In this document: positions 1-23,240 of the stretch, piece after piece
Layout: each line of letters opens with the position of its first letter
How positions within the stretch are numbered: position 1 is the first letter of the stretch
Origin: a virus
Taxonomy: Duplodnaviria; Heunggongvirae; Uroviricota; Caudoviricetes
Length of the DNA stretch: 24,774 nucleotides
Virus record (IMG/VR): IMGVR_UViG_2778261448_000010
Coordinates: 1-24,774 of that record
Reading direction: 5' to 3' (one strand)
The notes under the pieces: generated by a model
The model's input: only the letters and a program-made list of their open reading frames with translations
What the model was told of the DNA's origin: nothing
The model's database searches: none
Position numbers and translations under genes: made by a program

Positions 1-90
1 TCACTCTGCCAGATGGCGCAATGCCATCTGGTATCACTTAAAGGTATTAAAAACAACTTTTTGTCTTTTTACCTTCCCGTTTCGCTCAAG
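1..90. other. Bacterial chromosomal flank (B' side of the lambda attachment site)
   Basis: The sequence adjoining the core (reverse complement CTTGAGCGAAACGGGAAGGTAAAAAGACAA...) matches my recollection of the E. coli attB B' arm. No phage-like ORF is present; the minus-strand frame ending at 1-3 is only 8 codons. Confidence 0.6.
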
Positions 91-105
91 TTAGTATAAA
101 AAAGC
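91..105. other. attR: attR core (lambda-type common core, reverse complement GCTTTTTTATACTAA)
   Basis: The exact 15-bp lambda att common core is present as its reverse complement, with a lambda P-arm-like sequence on one side and attB-like sequence on the other (P-O-B' on the minus strand). Confidence 0.75.
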
Positions 106-250
106 TGAACCAGAAACAGAAAAAATCATTAATCTCAATCCATTACAATACATTTGGCTTAAAAAATAGACTGTATAATACTGCAAAACACAACATATCC
201 AGTCACTATGAATCAACTACTTAGATAGTATTAGTGACCTGTAACAGAGC
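106..250. other. attP P-arm remnant with Int arm-type/IHF/Xis binding region
   Basis: The reverse complement reads ...TCTGTTACAGGTCACTAATAC...CAGTCACTAT...GTTCAGC up to the core, closely resembling the lambda P arm including CAGTCACTAT-type arm sites. It is AT-rich. Confidence 0.65.
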
Positions 251-251
251 A

Positions 252-292
252 TTAGCGCAAGGTGATTTTTTGTCTTCTTGCGCTAATTTTTT
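252..292 (+). terminator. sib: sib/tI-like hairpin plus T-tract (lambda int retroregulator/terminator)
   Basis: Plus strand TTAGCGCAA-ggtgattttttgtcttc-TTGCGCTAA followed by TTTTTT. This is a perfect 9-bp inverted repeat with a U-tract, matching the lambda sib/tI sequence as I recall it, on the strand an int transcript would use. Confidence 0.7.
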
Positions 293-426
293 GTCATCAA
301 ACCTGTCGCACTCCAGAGAAGCACAAAGCCTTGCAATCCAGTGCAAAGCTTTGTGTGTCTCAGTTTTGTCTCATCAACTATAATATATTAATGGCATATG
401 ATTGATTATTAGAGAGTTACATTAAC

Positions 427-2559
427 TCACTTAAAAGGAGTGTTTATCCTAACAACTCTCAAATAAACATCTCTTATATTTTCACCTCCATTTGGCCTTA
501 AAACTGTTGCTGAAATAACTCCACTTTGTGAAGCAGATACTGTTGCGTTATATACTAATGAACTATTGAATTGTTGAGCGTGTATTTGCCTTGATGTTGT
601 TTCAATTTGCTCTCCGGCTCTCATCATAACTGCATGTTCTGAAAAACACCCGCCAGCACCAGTTGTTGTTGTCGCTGTAACCTCAACTCTATAGAAATAC
701 ATAGCAAGCGTACCTGAGTTTACTGAATTATTTGGAACTGGCACTTGTACGGTTATTGAGACTGGGCCGCTATCAACTCCTGTTGCCTGAGCACACCAGC
801 CAATTTCACCATTCTGAGATATTAATGTGAATATGCATCGATCTTTTGTCCCAGCGTTTACCTGATACGTTGTTGTATAGGTGGCACCATAGAAATGCTC
901 TACGGTTATGGCAGTACCGAAGTTCTCTCCCCAACCAGTCCATGAAGGCCAGATACTGGCATTGCTTTTAATGGCTACGCCATTATTGATGCACTTCAGA
1001 GACACTTTCCCATTATTACAAGAACTCAAGAGCACAGGGACTCCAGGAATGCTGTTCCTTAGTGTTATCTCAACATCCGGCTGCTCTGCGGTTACCAACA
1101 TTAGTGGCTCGACTGTTCTTGGAACCGTATTGAGCGGTATGTTAATCTCCATGTCGCGCACTCGCGTCCTTGTACCGCCACATAGAAATGCGCATACACC
1201 ACCTACATTAGCAGGAAGATAAAGTCGAACACCTTCAAAAGACAAATCAAAAACATCCGATTGAGAATTTGTGATGATTTGAATAAGGTGTATAGGGCCG
1301 TTAACGTTTTCTCCCGTAAAATTACTCTTACTGGTGATGTTTCTGTAAATACCACCTGTTCCTGATACTTTTGCCGCAAACACTGGTGTGTCCGTCATGG
1401 TGCAAACTAAACCATCAACAACACACCCTGTTGACCCCGTGAGTTGTAAAGTTACATTGCAGCCGCCGTATCTGTTAGATAGAAGATTTCCGAACTCACC
1501 ACAGTTTGTTATAGAACCACTAGTGTTATTGATATACATCAGGTGTGACGGACCATACGCACCGAAACTTTCGTCATGCCGCAATGTCCCATACACGTAC
1601 TCAATATTGCATCCTGCAAAGTTGTTAATAAGTGCGCATGAATAGTGTGTACAATAGATGTTAGAGAAGAGAGAGCCTCTAAAATCACCCTCATAACCAG
1701 AAACAAGGAAGTCGTAGCGATTATCGCTGGTTTCACCGACTGCCATCGCATTAATCAATTTGAAACGATACGCGTTTGAATTCATCCCGATAAAGCCACA
1801 GAACGCAGCTTCCCACGGGCGAGTAATTCCATAGCGAGTGGTTGTTGTGCCCCCCAAAGGATAGCCGCCTTTATAGACAGCATTAAATCCCATAATGGTC
1901 ACATCAGGATTCCTGTTCATGAAGACCAGAAATCCAGTTTTCTCATGAGTTATTTTAGCACCGTTAAAATCAATATATGCACCAGCGGGAGGAGTGATGA
2001 CATTTTCCTCATTCATCACCATACGATATGTGGAACCTCTCTTCATGAGGCATCTTCCAGTCATAATAGCATTAGTCACCGCCACTGTATCATCAGCTAC
2101 ACCATCTCCAATTGCTCCATATTGCTCTGGCGTTGCCCAATATGACAAACTATCCGCTACTGTACCAGCCAAGTATCCAATTTTAGTTGCACCATCTTCT
2201 TCAGACAGTTCACTTCGAAATTGATCAGGGTCGTACTTCAGCACATTCGGAAAATAGAACTGCTGCACACCGTACGCATCATAAACAGCCATAGAATGGC
2301 CTTGCACAGTTACGAACTTGGCAATCTGTCCGTTATATACAGGGTAACCAGCAGCGTTAATGATGATTGGTTGCGAAACAGGAACGTGAGAGCCGTCTTC
2401 GTTTTCCACATAAACCTGAATCTGGTTTTCAGGATGTACAGGGTCAGTGTCAATTTTTCCGATATAAATTTTGCCATTGGCTACGGCTTTAAAAGATCGC
2501 GCCATAGTGAAGAGTTGCGAAGGCATCGATACGATCACATTGGCTGTAATGTCTGTCAT
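427..2559 (-). CDS. Tailspike protein (P22 gp9-like head-binding domain, HK620-like length)
   Basis: The 710-aa ORF starts [13 protein letters not shown]...[19 protein letters not shown]...[12 protein letters not shown]...NVLKYDPDQ, matching the conserved N-terminal head-binding domain of P22 tailspike. The remainder differs from P22 gp9. 710 aa is the length I recall for the HK620 tailspike. RBS GGAG lies upstream of the ATG. Confidence 0.9.
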
Positions 2560-18079: not shown

Positions 18080-18501
18080 TTTCCGAACAGAGTGCTCATC
18101 GGTGATGTTTCAATCTGGATTGCGCCGCCGTCTTTGCCGACAAGCTCATTAGTTACCTTGTCGCCATACTTACGGGGATTCATTCTGGCCAGCGCCCATT
18201 TGCGGGTATCAACGCGAAGTCTTGCCTTTGCCACCTCGGCGGCATCAGGGATTACGTCGTCAGCAATTTCGAATATCTCTTCGAAAATAGAGTCGGCCCG
18301 AGTCTCTGTTGCCTTCGCGTACTGGTCACGAAACTCCTGATGTTCAGCCAGCCAGCGAAAAACTGATGTTTTGCTCGGCATTCCTGGGCGTTCGCAAACT
18401 TTGCGCAGACTCTCACCGGAGGAAAGCAATGCGCAAATGTCATTAGCCACCTCCGGCATATAATCAGAGGGGCGACCACCTTTCTTTTTCTCAGTCGCCA
18501 T
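18076..18501 (-). CDS. Terminase small subunit (Sf6 gp1-like)
   Basis: The 141-aa ORF MATEKKKGGRPSDYMPEVANDICALLSSGESLRKVCERPGMP...DTRKWALARMNPRKYGDKV... resembles the Sf6 small terminase and lies immediately upstream of the large subunit. Confidence 0.85.
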   Translation of the reverse strand: MATEKKKGGRPSDYMPEVANDICALLSSGESLRKVCERPGMPSKTSVFRWLAEHQEFRDQYAKATETRADSIFEEIFEIADDVIPDAAEVAKARLRVDTRKWALARMNPRKYGDKVTNELVGKDGGAIQIETSPMSTLFGK

Positions 18502-18580
18502 ATTGATTATTTCCCTTCTGCTTGCTTATCCCATTCATCGCGGAATTTGGATGGGTTGTCGAAACCTTGAGTTGCCATGT

Positions 18581-18823
18581 TTACGCTCCGGTAGTGAACA
18601 GGTCTAACGCTTCCTTCGATTTACGCACCGCTTCGATAGTTCGGGTCGTGATATCCGAATTAGCGCCGCCTGACTGGAAGTGAATTTTGAATAGCTCAAG
18701 CTTCAACTCGTCAGTGCCGATGAATTGAAATGCTTCTTCTGCGGCTGCGTTCTGGTTCATGACCAGTTTGTAAATCTCTAACTGGAATTTCTGTTCTTCA
18801 GTCATGGGAATAATCTCTGCCAT
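18581..18823 (-). CDS. Hypothetical small helical protein upstream of terminase
   Basis: The 80-aa ORF has an ATG start and is in the late orientation. No motif recognised. Confidence 0.4.
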   Translation of the reverse strand: MAEIIPMTEEQKFQLEIYKLVMNQNAAAEEAFQFIGTDELKLELFKIHFQSGGANSDITTRTIEAVRKSKEALDLFTTGA

Positions 18824-18924
18824 TGTTGGCTCCGTTTATCCGTTAAAAGGGATATCAGTTAAGTTATCCCGTGTAGGGTATAAGCCATTATCAAAGCCAC
18901 TCAGTAAGGAATGGCTTTTGTGAT

Positions 18925-18960
18925 GGCAATAAAAAAGGCCGCCTGAGCGACCTTTCATTT
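18925..18960. terminator. Terminator-like hairpin with flanking A/T tracts
   Basis: AAAAAAGGCCGCC-tga-GCGACC-TTTCATTTTT forms an imperfect stem with one wobble, and has T-rich runs on both strands. It lies just downstream of the DUF551-like ORF. Confidence 0.4.
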
Positions 18961-18970
18961 TTCATCCGTT

Positions 18971-19189
18971 TTAATCATCTGGGTAATTAAGCGGCATCCA
19001 GTGTGTAACCTTGCTTGCTCCTGAATCGATGAATGCCTTTGTTCTCTGCCAGTAAGAGCCCATACATGATAGTTTGAACACGTCACCAGTATCAGTAAGA
19101 GCTATAACCTCTTTAGACCACATCCCTTCTTTGCTTTCTGGTAGCCGGTGTTCAACATTGATCCATTGGTTTCCGTTATCATCCATCAC
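18971..19189 (-). CDS. DUF551-like small phage protein
   Basis: The 72-aa ORF ends ...THWMPLNYPDD, a pattern typical of DUF551 proteins. The ATG start is more likely at 19186 than the GTG at 19189. Confidence 0.5.
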   Translation of the reverse strand: MMDDNGNQWINVEHRLPESKEGMWSKEVIALTDTGDVFKLSCMGSYWQRTKAFIDSGASKVTHWMPLNYPDD

Positions 19190-19626
19190 AACCTCGTCTA
19201 GTTGTTCGCCATAGATTCAGTGGCAGGCGGTGACGAGTCCGCTTTTCGGGAGCTACCCTAGCCACTGCTTGATTCTATCCGATGTCTTTCCATCAGTCCG
19301 CCACCACAAAGAATCTTTTTTGCCATAAGGCAGGAGGTTCATCTTTCAGTGGCTGCCAGTGTTATTTCCCCACTTACTGGCTTGGGTTGCTTCGTGGTAC
19401 TGCCGTTAACTGGTTGCCCAGAATAAATTCCGGTTTCATTATCAAGCCCACCCGTAGATAGGCTTTGTAATGAACTGGCTCTTATCTCAACGCAGCCCCT
19501 TACCGCGCGCCAGATGCTCAATATCAAGCATCAGCAATGAGATGTTTAATCTGGATTCACTCCAGAAGTGATCACCACCCTGTCTACAGAGCCAGATGTG
19601 AAGGATGATGAGTAAAATTATCGCTA

Positions 19627-20064
19627 TCATAGAAGGCATTGCGTCCTGATGTATTCCTGCAAGTAGTTAACCTGCGCGGTTATCCTGTCGATTCCACTTC
19701 GGAGACGGTAATAATTGAGTTCAGCATCTGCTGTAAGTCTTGGGCTTTCTCCATCGCCCATGCTGCTGGCTCCGGTCGTTGACTTTGTACAGGTGGCGGC
19801 GACTTGCAGGCGCTTACGACCAGCAGAAACATCAGCACGGAGACTTTCGATAGTCGCGTTAGCATCAGCAAGCTCCTTTGTGTATCTGGCGTCGAGTTCT
19901 GCTACATCACGTTGACGCTTCTGCATGTCAGCGATGATGTACGTGGCCTTATCACGCTGCTCTTTGTAGGCGATTGCGTTATCACGGTAATGATTAACAG
20001 CCCATGACAGACAGACGATGATGCAAATAACCAGAGCGGAGATAATCGCGGTTACTCTGCTCAT
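19627..20064 (-). CDS. Rz: Rz i-spanin
   Basis: The 145-aa [40 protein letters not shown]... is near-identical to the lambda Rz N-terminus as I recall it. Its start overlaps the R stop (ATGA). Confidence 0.9.
19680..19871 (-). CDS. Rz1: Rz1 o-spanin lipoprotein embedded in Rz (+1 frame)
   Basis: The 63-aa ORF lies wholly inside Rz. It has a signal peptide with lipobox LVVSAC followed by a proline-rich segment, as in lambda Rz1. Confidence 0.8.
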
Positions 20065-20537
20065 ACCTCAATCTCTCTGACCGTTCCGCCAGCCTCTTTG
20101 AATTTTGCAATCAGGCTGTCAGCCTTATGCTCGAACTGGCCATAACCAGCGCCCGGCAGTGAAGCCCAGATATTGCTGCAACGGTCGATTGCCTGACGAA
20201 TATCACCGCGGTCAATCATCGGTAAAGCGCCACGTTCCTTAATCTGCTGCAATGCCACAGCGTCCTGGCTTTTCGGAGAGAAATCTTTCAGGACAAGCTG
20301 CTTACGATAGGCATCCCACCAACGGGAAAGAAGCTGATAACGTCCGGCGGCTGTTGATTTGAGTTTTGGGTTTAGCGTGACAAGTTTGCGAGGGTGATCG
20401 GAGTAATCAGTGAATAGCTCTCCGCCAACAATGACGTCATAACCATGATTTCTGGTTTTCTGTCGTCCGTTATCAGTTCCCTCTGACCACGCCAGCATAT
20501 CGAGGAACGCCTTACGTTGATTATTGATTTCCACCAT
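20061..20537 (-). CDS. R: Endolysin R (lambda-type lytic transglycosylase)
   Basis: The 158-aa [62 protein letters not shown]... is essentially identical to lambda R as I recall it. Confidence 0.95.
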
Positions 20538-20844
20538 CTTCTACTCCGGCTTTTTTAGCAGCGAAGCGTTTGATAAGCGAACCAATCGAGTCAGTACCGA
20601 TGTAGCCGATGAACACGCTCGTTATATAAGCGAGATTGCTACTTAGTCCGGCGAAGTCGAGAAGGTCACGAATGAACCAGGCGATAATGGCGCACATCGT
20701 TGCGTCGATTACTGTTTTTGTAAACGCACCGCCATTATATCTGCCGCGAAGGTACGCCATTGCAAACGCAAGGATTGCCCCGATGCCTTGTTCCTTTGCC
20801 GCGAGAATGGCGGCTAACAGGTCATGTTTTTCTGGCATCTTCAT
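20521..20844 (-). CDS. S: Holin S (lambda S107/S105 dual-start)
   Basis: The 107-aa [70 protein letters not shown]... matches lambda S, including the Met1-Lys2-Met3 dual start. RBS GGGGGTAAG lies upstream. Confidence 0.95.
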
Positions 20845-21392
20845 GTCTTACCCCCAGAAGGGGATCTGTTCAAATTAGGAATTATGGATATGGTCGCTTG
20901 AACAAATCCTGGTTACGGTTGATTTGTAACGGGTTTGTTCGTGACCGCATTCATGAGCAAATCATGCGTGGATTGCGCCAACAATACATGCCGCTCATAT
21001 CACGAAGCCCAGCCATTGATGCTGGGTTTTCTTTTTTAAAGCGCACTAGACCACCGTATCCACAGAGTGTCAGCAATGAGTTGGTTAGGTCTGGTTCTTG
21101 GTGGAAGTACGCTTTAAAAAATGGGCTGAGGGTTGTAGACCAAAATACTGAGGTAATGGTAATGGTGAAAAACGGTTTTGCTCTGGGTGGATTTGGCTGT
21201 GGTGGCCGGCGCTGATCTCCGGCTTGTATACAGGCACCTTGTTCTTCCGAAGCTCTCCTGCGCGCATCAGCCTGCGCATTCACCACACCGGAAAGAGCAC
21301 TCAGTTGTACCGGCCAGTTGTGCCACTAAGAAATGCTTTCGCAGACCGTTAAGCTCTTTGCCAGTTCTTTAATGCTCTTACCTGTTGTGCAA

Positions 21393-21436
21393 ACAAAAAA
21401 GCCACCGTTGCAACTTAAGAGTCACTAACGGCAGCT
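21393..21436 (-). terminator. tR'-like terminator of the short late-leader transcript
   Basis: On the minus strand a hairpin (AGCTGCCGTT...AACGGTGGCT, two mismatches) is followed by TTTTTTGTTTG, then by ...GCACAACAGGTAAGAGCATT, which resembles the lambda sequence just downstream of tR'. Confidence 0.55.
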
Positions 21437-21439
21437 TAC

Positions 21440-21476
21440 CCTCTAATTATGGCTAAATGGCTAACTGCATGTCAAG
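21440..21476 (-). promoter_or_regulatory. Putative late promoter P_R' overlapping the Q stop codon
   Basis: On the minus strand: TTGACA (21470-21475), an 18-bp spacer, then CATAAT (21446-21451). The Q stop TAG lies within the spacer. Confidence 0.5.
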
Positions 21477-21971
21477 GCTTTTAACAGCAACATGCTTAAC
21501 TTTCTCAACACGTTTACGCATTTTGAAAGCATTTTGCATTGGTTGGTACAAAACAAATAACGACGCTTTCAGGATGTCGTCAATTTCGTTTCTACAGGTT
21601 GCCAGTGAAGGTTTTCTCCATCCCTCGCCACCACGTCCACACATCTTGCGTGGCTTTGCAGTCGCGTGATAGTAGGATGCAATTGCTCGCTTAGATGAAC
21701 CATGAGCGTAGTAGCTGAGGAGGATGCCAAAGGCTTTCTTGTCAATGTACATGACGGAATCGACGACCTGAGAAATCAACATTCCATCATCATCATTGCA
21801 CATTGGCCTTGTCATAACTCTTCCCGGCTCTACGCTCTCCATGAACTTCGCTATTACGCTGCTCATACGCTTTTCCAGACGACCTGAATAAACCCATGCG
21901 CCCCACAGTTCAAGCCAGCCATTCAGCCACTCGTGCTGTTCTTTGGTGAGGTTTAGTTCTCTTATGCTCAT
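21453..21971 (-). CDS. Q: Late-gene antiterminator Q (phage 82/21-type family)
   Basis: The 172-aa ORF contains the motifs LELWGAW and RPMCNDDDGMLI, resembling Q-family antiterminators of lambdoid prophages. It lies immediately upstream of the late promoter and lysis genes. Confidence 0.7.
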   Translation of the reverse strand: MSIRELNLTKEQHEWLNGWLELWGAWVYSGRLEKRMSSVIAKFMESVEPGRVMTRPMCNDDDGMLISQVVDSVMYIDKKAFGILLSYYAHGSSKRAIASYYHATAKPRKMCGRGGEGWRKPSLATCRNEIDDILKASLFVLYQPMQNAFKMRKRVEKVKHVAVKSLDMQLAI

Positions 21972-22156
21972 CGTCTTCCTCTCTTGCCCTGTTTGACCAT
22001 CAGGACGCCGTTAACTATTACGTGACGCTCACCTTTGCTGTCTCGGTTGTACTTGAGCACTGTTCCTCTTGCACAGGAAAGCATCCTCGCCACTTCGGTC
22101 TGATTGCCTCGTGTCTGGATAAGAAGCTCTGGTATCGTTTGAATTGTGGCGTTCAT
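21968..22156 (-). CDS. ninH: NinH-like small DNA-binding protein
   Basis: The 62-aa ORF ...TIPELLIQTRGNQTEVARMLSCARGTVLKYNRDSKGERHVIVNGVLMV resembles lambda NinH. Confidence 0.7.
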   Translation of the reverse strand: MNATIQTIPELLIQTRGNQTEVARMLSCARGTVLKYNRDSKGERHVIVNGVLMVKQGKRGRR

Positions 22157-22802: not shown

Positions 22803-23071
22803 TATGGTTCACTCCAGTAATTCTCAATTGCAGCAGCCATTCTCTGCATCCACTCAGCCAGCTTTAACGCGGCTTCTCTTTCAGAACCACATTTAGGGAA
22901 ATCCTTCATTTCCATGCTGGCCTTATATGTTCTGAATGCCAGGTCTCCGGTAATAATCAACTCCTGATCAAGCACCGAGCGTTTATTCCGGTGTTGAACG
23001 TAATAGACAGATTCAGTCCGCATTTCTTCTCTGTCTTTTTTGAAGGAAATAAGCTCAGAGAAATCACTCAT
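22802..23071 (-). CDS. Hypothetical nin-region protein
   Basis: The 89-aa ORF is translationally coupled to neighbours. No motif recognised. Confidence 0.45.
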   Translation of the reverse strand: MSDFSELISFKKDREEMRTESVYYVQHRNKRSVLDQELIITGDLAFRTYKASMEMKDFPKCGSEREAALKLAEWMQRMAAAIENYWSEP

Positions 23072-23240
23072 CGTCTTCTTCCTCGTACATTGAGCTATTC
23101 GGATCGCTCATCAGTTCTGCGCAGCAGTGCTCACACACGTGAACTTCCAGCACATGCAGCTTCTGACCGCAGTTAGCGCACGTTAAAGCCCGCTCGACGC
23201 TTTCTTTCTGGTATTGAAGAGATTGGGATGGGCTAAGCAT
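23064..23240 (-). CDS. NinF-like small zinc-ribbon protein
   Basis: Likely start at ATG 23238-23240 ([40 protein letters not shown]...), with CxxC...CxxCC and an acidic tail. It resembles a lambda nin small protein, which I take to be NinF. Confidence 0.55.
   Translation of the reverse strand: MLSPSQSLQYQKESVERALTCANCGQKLHVLEVHVCEHCCAELMSDPNSSMYEEEDDE

Follow-up and report, generated by a model that had tools for sequence, protein, structure and literature searches.

A mosaic lambdoid lysis cassette, probably of the Sf6/CUS-3 type, in a P22-like prophage of E. coli

The lysis genes S, R, Rz and Rz1 that lie on the minus strand at 19627-20844 of the window (the whole stretch of 24,774 nucleotides that was analysed) most probably represent a standard late-operon lysis module of a P22-like (Lederbergvirus) E. 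coli prophage, of the type known from Sf6 and CUS-3. On the basis of the sequence comparisons below, we put the probability of this reading at roughly 0.9. We are similarly confident that the cassette has been pieced together from modules circulating across the lambdoid phage pool. Its S and R genes are lambda-type, and the distal part of Rz together with Rz1 is P22/HK97-type. This arrangement is a known and very frequent one, and what the window carries is an ordinary, previously described lambdoid lysis cassette. The mosaic was mapped with 50-nt identity bins against lambda, P22, Sf6, HK620 and CUS-3, and with base-level alignments at the joints. The features to which the text refers are the following.

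19487-19639, minus strand: 50-aa ORF, homologue of Sf6 gene 65 (98% nucleotide identity to that gene)
19627-20844, minus strand: lysis cassette S-R-Rz-Rz1, four full-length ORFs
19627-20064, minus strand: Rz i-spanin, 145 aa (Pfam PF03245, E 3.3e-36, 124.7 bits)
19680-19865, minus strand: Rz1 o-spanin lipoprotein, 61 aa from ATG, in the +1 frame within Rz (PF06085, E 2.2e-20, 72.5 bits)
~19945-19995, minus strand: mosaic joint inside Rz (multiple alignment of six phages)
20061-20537, minus strand: R endolysin, a lambda-type lytic transglycosylase of 158 aa (match to PDB 1AM7)
20521-20844, minus strand: S holin/antiholin, 107 aa (Pfam PF05106, E 2.4e-30)
20844 and 20838, minus strand: start codons of S107 and of S105 (Met3), respectively
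20850-20865, minus strand: predicted hairpin resembling the sdi of lambda, immediately 5' of the S starts; stem of 6 bp (UCCCCU/GGGGGU), loop of 4 nt
20866-21389, minus strand: Q-S spacer of the HK620 type (50-nt identity bins)
21395-21448, minus strand: qut and the leader terminator tR', both of the phage 21/Sf6 type and placed solely through homology with annotated Sf6 features
21446-21475, minus strand: pR' late promoter, TTGACA-18-CATAAT, overlapping the 3' end of Q (11/12 consensus match)
21453-21971, minus strand: Q late antiterminator of the phage 21/Sf6 type, 172 aa (Pfam PF06530, E 1.1e-25)

Holin, endolysin and the sequence leading up to them

With 105 bits against PF05106, where the cutoff is 23.8, the product of S belongs to the holin family. 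The gene matches lambda S at 321 of 324 nt (99.1%) and 106 of 107 aa, and HK620 S at 322 of 324 nt. Compared with the S genes of Sf6 and CUS-3, however, all 324 nt are identical, so that there are 0 differences to these phages against 3 to lambda. The P22 holin (gene 13) is 88.9% identical at the amino acid level. R likewise stands close to lambda R, with 455 of 477 nt (95.4%) and 155 of 158 aa in common. A first-pass annotation had read all four lysis proteins as lambda's own, nearly residue for residue. For S and R this description is accurate, but it breaks down for Rz (57.8% aa identity over its whole length) and for Rz1 (36.9%). The gene-structural details that it had pointed out are all in place: S has the dual start Met1-Lys2-Met3 (its translation opens with MKMPEK, encoded by ATGAAGATG), S and R overlap by 17 nt, and R and Rz overlap by 4 nt in an ATGA. 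The one amino acid change between the S proteins of the window and of lambda replaces Arg105 with Gly, leaving one positive charge fewer in the cytoplasmic tail; Gly105 is common to the window, Sf6 and CUS-3, whereas lambda has Arg105. The cytoplasmic tail of lambda S modulates lysis timing, and a small shift in that timing is a possible effect of the substitution.

The predicted hairpin upstream of S occupies the same position as the sdi hairpin of lambda, which has a loop of 5 nt instead of 4, and its folding energy is similar (-10.1 versus -9.9 kcal/mol in lambda), although these energies are indistinguishable from that of shuffled sequence, the z-scores being non-significant at such short length. 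It is within the loop of this hairpin that the sequence switches from the HK620 type to the type common to the other phages. Close identity to lambda sets in ~12-25 nt 5' of the S start codon, where the Q-S spacer approaches S, while the 100 nt 5' of S are HK620-type, with an identity to lambda of just 76-82%. The segment that runs from this point, ~12-25 nt before the S start, to codon 39 of Rz is common to all lambda-type cassettes.

Along its full length (residues 1-158 on 1-158), R aligns with the lambda lysozyme of PDB 1AM7 (E 4.5e-104); a Pfam search of the protein gave no match at E 0.01 or better. Residue 19 is a Glu, the catalytic residue in lambda R. Identity to the R genes of Sf6 and CUS-3 amounts to 96.0% and 96.9% of nucleotides, and the HK620 protein shares 157 of 158 aa. 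The best phage record for R reaches 97.4%, with none at 99% or above.

Upstream of the cassette, the first-pass annotation had assigned Q, like the morphogenesis genes, to other lambdoid lineages, and this is borne out. Q is 98.5% identical in nucleotides to Sf6 gene 59, which is annotated as 'similar to phage 21 Q', and has no similarity to lambda; the structural genes are nearest to those of CUS-3 and other Lederbergvirus phages. The annotated pR' of Sf6 aligns to the promoter site at 96.7% identity, its qut falls on 21400-21448 (98%) and its tR' on 21395-21436 (100%). A T-run follows the tR' hairpin in the sequence. A simple terminator scan called no minus-strand terminator in the leader, and the positions given here rest on the annotated homologues in Sf6 and HK620. 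The block from 21971 to ~21390, comprising Q, pR', qut and tR', is 94-100% identical to the 21/Sf6/CUS-3 type in 50-nt bins. At ~21389/21390 it joins the HK620-type spacer, which agrees with HK620 at 98-100% in the majority of 50-nt bins and at 92% in one, and resembles lambda, Sf6 and CUS-3 weakly or not at all. A homologue of the terminator annotated as 'tQ' in HK620 lies within this spacer, at 21116-21138. ARAGORN detected no tRNA genes in the spacer of the kind found there in Sf6 and phage 21. An Rfam search over 18500-22000 gave no match within the cassette or leader, its sole match being an int-alpA RNA downstream. A 64-aa ORF at 21085-21279 was considered as a homologue of lambda orf-64 and rejected (E 5.8, no Pfam match); we treat it as a chance ORF.

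The joint inside Rz and what lies downstream

Rz has the properties of a lambda-family i-spanin, namely similarity to PF03245, an N-terminal anchor and a periplasmic coiled-coil domain, yet it is not nearly identical to lambda Rz, and as a whole it is closer to the Rz of P22 (89.7% aa). The reason becomes apparent when the protein is divided. Codons 1-39 agree with lambda at 37 of 39 aa and 106 of 117 nt, against 31 of 39 aa for P22. From codon 40 to the end (40-145), identity to lambda is 45.2% aa and to HK620 41%, versus 93.4% to P22 gp15. Judged from these alignments, Rz is a natural chimera, in which the anchor and the start of coiled coil 1 are lambda/HK620/Sf6-like and the rest is P22 gene 15-like. 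Sf6 and CUS-3 carry the same form, each being 96.1% identical in nucleotides to Rz of the window.

At the joint, a stretch that is conserved in all six phages is followed by a point from which lambda and HK620 part from the window, P22, Sf6 and CUS-3; here, lambda and HK620 also have an insertion of 21 nt. Further on, from ~19664, HK620 is again identical to the window, through the final ~37 nt of Rz and into the next ORF, and similarity to P22 ends at ~19636. The joint inside Rz is where the 'bsq7 boundary sequence' of Sf6 falls (19949-19995), and 'bsq4' of CUS-3 maps to 21389-21452, at the upstream joint. The concept of a boundary sequence is taken from feature notes in the GenBank records of these two phages, and the coincidence of positions means that both joints had been recognised earlier. 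The view that the cassette lies in a mosaic region with sharp joints is well founded, and similarity to lambda is limited to 19816-20961 and absent from the immediate flanks. As to where the joints are, the left one had rightly been placed in the Q-S spacer, where it falls at the S-proximal end, but the right one lies inside Rz and not downstream of it as had been supposed.

Why would a junction at this position be tolerated? In lambda Rz, an artificial anchor can stand in for the membrane anchor (residues 1-24), missense changes are tolerated at the periphery of coiled coil 1, and the mutation-sensitive part comprises residues 57-88 (Cahill 2017, PMC5295617). These data fit a tolerated junction at codon 39-40, since a junction there would swap the interacting unit as a whole. 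To that unit would belong the part of coiled coil 1 that is sensitive to mutation, the Rz1-carrying linker, coiled coil 2 and the C-terminus, with the anchor alone staying behind. All of the i-spanins concerned (lambda, P22, Sf6, CUS-3, HK620) form one 'Lambda' family, while the o-spanins are split into HK97 (P22, Sf6 and CUS-3, but also HK97 and epsilon34), Lambda (Rz1 of lambda, 21 and Stx phages) and HK620 families (Kongari 2018, PMC6139136).

Rz1 of the window belongs to the HK97 family by its similarity, its lipobox Cys (VSAC, Cys20), its proline-rich mature part and its embedding in the +1 frame, the start being offset from that of Rz by 199 nt, or 1 modulo 3. It is identical to P22 Rz1 at 58 of 61 aa, to that of Sf6 at 60 of 61 and to that of CUS-3 at 59 of 61. 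With lambda Rz1 it shares just 24 of 65 aligned positions, which places it outside the 'Lambda' o-spanin family. As both the periplasmic domains of Rz and the embedded Rz1 are P22/HK97-type, the interacting parts of the spanin remain a matched pair.

Directly behind Rz, and overlapping its end by 13 nt, is the ORF homologous to Sf6 gene 65, which has no Pfam match. In epsilon34, mEp043 and Sf101, a homologue is annotated in this same position behind Rz, suggesting that this ORF travels with the P22-type Rz/Rz1 in several phages. The remainder of the window agrees with a Lederbergvirus late operon: CUS-3 covers 70% of it at 94.9% identity and is collinear over 2216-24774, HK620, Sf6, Sf101 and others match as well, and the records of CUS-3, HK620 and Sf6 are classified as Lederbergvirus.

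Low diversity of S beside R

Nucleotide diversity in S and its leader is about sevenfold below that in the adjacent R. The comparison covers 12 phages with a lambda-type S (the window, lambda, HK620, Sf6, CUS-3, HK022, HK75, mEp043, HK140, Sf101, mEp234 and Gally), a sample that is small and non-independent, as several of these phages stem from the same collections. Outside its overlap with R, S has 5 segregating sites in 307 nt and a mean pairwise divergence of 0.6%. R has 65 such sites in 477 nt, with a mean of 4.2% and a minimum of 2.3%, and 51 of its 60 variable codons vary synonymously only. The rise in diversity is sharp, and takes place ~30 nt beyond the stop codon of S. On the other side, the ~130 nt before S come in two discrete types ~20% apart, of which one is found in the window and HK620 and the other, with little variation within it, in the ten remaining phages. 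For the pair of window and lambda, the difference between S and R gives p = 0.001 in Fisher's test. In a broader set of 148 phage records, S is at least 99% identical in 97, 95-99% in 4 and 90-95% in 47. A second allele class of S, represented by P22 and epsilon34, stands ~9% away, with few intermediates.

How, then, could such a pattern have come about? Compatible with our preferred reading of the cassette, and to be added to it at most tentatively, is the proposal that S and its ~130-nt leader are a separately moving segment, which was recently swept by recombination through the lambdoid phages of E. coli. The near-identity of S to lambda would then be recent but pool-wide instead of specific to lambda, a possibility that we likewise consider rather unlikely. 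The step in diversity between S and R, the test on the window-lambda pair and the distribution of S over the records all speak in its favour. A sweep should, however, carry along flanks of variable length, and the position of the step does not vary among the 12 phages, in a sample with the shortcomings given above. Moreover, synonymous constraint, arising from an mRNA structure that governs translation of S or from an antisense element, could give the same pattern. That a second allele class exists ~9% away does imply that synonymous sites of S can change. The more general claim, that S and the ~130 nt before it form an island of low diversity owing either to a recent allele sweep in the E. 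coli lambdoid pool or to an unrecognised constraint on synonymous sites through mRNA structure or antisense function, is in our estimate doubtful. A literature search found no earlier reports of low diversity in S, although such reports may exist outside the papers searched. This contrast between S and R is the one loose end of this analysis and merits a look at population scale; little else in it matters as discovery.

Function, origin and comparison with named phages

The near-identity of the gene products to characterised proteins suggests how the cassette would work. The phage 21-type Q would modify RNA polymerase at pR'/qut and thereby cause read-through of the leader terminators. Translation of S from two starts would yield the antiholin S107 and the holin S105, in a ratio set by the predicted upstream hairpin, after which the holin would permeabilise the inner membrane at a programmed time. 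This would allow the soluble R transglycosylase to reach and cut the cell wall, and the Rz/Rz1 spanin complex would then disrupt the outer membrane. Because the window is the end of a prophage in an E. coli chromosome, and many E. coli prophages are defective, one might ask whether the cassette is instead a decaying, non-functional remnant. We regard this as very improbable, given that the start signals and overlaps of the four full-length lysis ORFs are intact, that R retains its catalytic Glu19 and Rz1 its lipobox Cys, that R differs from its relatives by 12-20 synonymous versus 2-4 non-synonymous changes, and that the terminase, portal, coat and tail genes near the cassette are intact ORFs in an order collinear with CUS-3.

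The resemblance of S and R to lambda, which the first-pass annotation had taken as a sign of recent exchange, most likely reflects a widely shared allele class and not a recent transfer from lambda. Besides S being identical to that of Sf6 and CUS-3, the distance between R and lambda R (22 nt differences, 19 of which are synonymous) is an ordinary between-phage distance: any two of the window, lambda, Sf6, HK620 and CUS-3 differ by 15-24 nt in R. Against the whole lambda genome, the window shows five similar patches, of which those in ninB, ninE and ninF are 96.1-97.6% identical. Identity to lambda is no higher in R than in these patches, and only S exceeds them. Measured against the refuting outcome that the first-pass annotation had itself named, an identity to lambda no higher in the block than in the flanking genes, its reading therefore fails for R and stands for S. 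That lambda, or a phage very closely related to it, recently donated the whole S-R-Rz-Rz1 block, the joints then lying in the Q-S spacer and beyond the end of Rz, is hardly credible, for although S and R are close to lambda and the immediate flanks are not, the similarity stops inside Rz (distal Rz 45%, Rz1 37% aa), the 100 nt before S are HK620-type, S is nearer to Sf6 and CUS-3, and R and the nin patches are as stated.

The shared-allele reading is in keeping with the prevalence of these sequences. For the 2.1-kb region there are 371 matching phage records; of 5426 complete E. coli genomes, 4953 contain a match, with roughly 10,000 matching places among them. Among the matches listed, no exact copy was found in either the phage records or the genomes, the best being 97.3% over 78% of the region in phages, and 96-98% over 92-95% in genomes. 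The P22-type distal Rz with Rz1 occurs in 190 phage records, often with S and R of the lambda type next to it; among these are HK75, mEp043, HK140, Sf101, mEp234, Gally and epsilon34, the last with a P22-type S. At equal or higher identity, the cassette is found in the P22-like phages Sf6, CUS-3, Sf101 and Gally. It is present in the siphoviruses HK75, mEp043, HK140 and mEp234 as well. In the E. coli/Shigella branch, P22-like genomes as a rule carry S and R of the lambda type (HK620, Sf6, CUS-3, Sf101, Gally), and holin and lysin types are interchangeable among P22-like phages (epsilon34 genome paper, PMC2629481).

These findings confirm the textbook picture of lambdoid phages exchanging lysis genes both as modules and as segments smaller than a gene. 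The joints fall where function tolerates them, in this case just past the anchor of Rz, so that its periplasmic domain is kept together with the embedded Rz1. As a practical lesson, a cassette that looked like lambda's by eye proves to be lambda-type in half only.

Of the named systems, Sf6 (genes 60-64) and CUS-3 (S, R, Rz, Rz1) come closest, as they share with the window the four genes, their overlaps and the chimeric form of Rz, along with a 21-type Q and a gene 65-like ORF after Rz. They differ in the 130 nt before S, which are lambda-type in both phages and HK620-type in the window, and the Q-S spacer of Sf6 carries a tRNA-Asn and a tRNA-Thr where the window has no tRNA. HK620 shares S, R, the Q-S spacer from 21389, the final ~37 nt of Rz and the downstream region with the window, but it has a lambda-type Q, a third type of distal Rz and an Rz1 of the HK620 o-spanin family, and the window differs from it in all three. 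Lambda has the dual start of S, the 17-nt and ATGA overlaps and the embedding of Rz1 in the +1 frame in common with the window, where a hairpin is predicted at the position of lambda's. However, the Rz of the window is 8 residues shorter than lambda's, its Rz1 belongs to a different o-spanin family and is without the second Cys (C29) and the penta-proline run of lambda Rz1, and the S leader, Q and downstream region of lambda (where bor is located) are unrelated. In P22, Rz is also 145 aa long and differs from that of the window over the first ~35 nt, whereas the endolysin gp19 is of an unrelated lysozyme type, its 17% identity to R of the window reflecting a forced alignment. P22 gene 13 is a homologous holin that forms a separate allele class of S, ~9-12% divergent from S of the window. 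The combination of S, R, chimeric Rz and Rz1 seen in the window is thus that of Sf6, CUS-3, HK75 and others, and of epsilon34 with a P22-type S.

Low diversity in S and its leader

Across 12 lambdoid phages, among them lambda and the phage of the window, the holin region stands out as an island of very low diversity that comprises S together with about 130 nt of upstream leader (window 20521-20975), as compared to the endolysin gene R (20061-20520). Only 5 segregating sites are present in 307 nt of S, versus 65 in 477 nt of R, and the step up in diversity lies some 30 nt beyond the S stop codon. In the same 12 phages the S leader occurs as two discrete types, and the point at which one type switches to the other is the loop of the predicted, sdi-like hairpin that precedes S (20850-20865).

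Terminators in the late leader and patches in the nin region

Further upstream, a single late leader was observed to carry homologues of two different annotated terminators:

21395-21436, minus strand: homologue of the phage 21/Sf6 tR' terminator
21116-21138, minus strand: homologue of the HK620 'tQ' terminator

This pairing is a by-product of the joint at ~21389, where the phage 21/Sf6-type block of Q, pR', qut and tR' borders the HK620-type Q-S spacer. A hairpin followed by a T-run is also found at 21004-21030, in plus-strand orientation, antisense to the late operon.

Three segments of the nin region are 96-98% identical to lambda versus 91-95% to P22, and are more small patches from the common lambdoid pool within the same window:

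23069-23206: ninF segment
23640-23806: ninE segment
24334-24774: ninB segment

The left end and the attachment site

The P-arm of lambda attP (lambda 27473-27742) matches window 87-357 with 90.8% identity, and this similarity ends at the attP core. Furthermore, 5421 of 5426 E. coli genomes match window 1-430 in part or whole. Together, these matches suggest that positions 1 to ~86 are host chromosome, in which case the window would represent the end of a P22-like prophage residing at the lambda attachment site.

Elements between the lysis and terminase genes

Within the late operon, with the lysis genes on one side and those for terminase on the other, a match to a known RNA family was found, just upstream of a small ORF:

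19206-19268, minus strand: int-alpA RNA (Rfam RF02996; 45.1 bits, gathering score 35.8, E 2.4e-07)
18971-19189: 72-aa DUF551 ORF
19487-19639, minus strand: 50-aa ORF, 98% nucleotide identity to Sf6 gene 65

By identity comparison, the RNA stretch has no counterpart in lambda, P22, Sf6, HK620 or CUS-3. The 50-aa ORF, which has a 13-nt overlap with the stop-codon end of Rz and is hydrophobic in its N-terminal half, matched no family in a Pfam search. Annotated homologues of it are located directly 3' of the same chimeric Rz type (lambda-like codons 1-39, then P22 gene 15-like) in epsilon34, mEp043 and Sf101.
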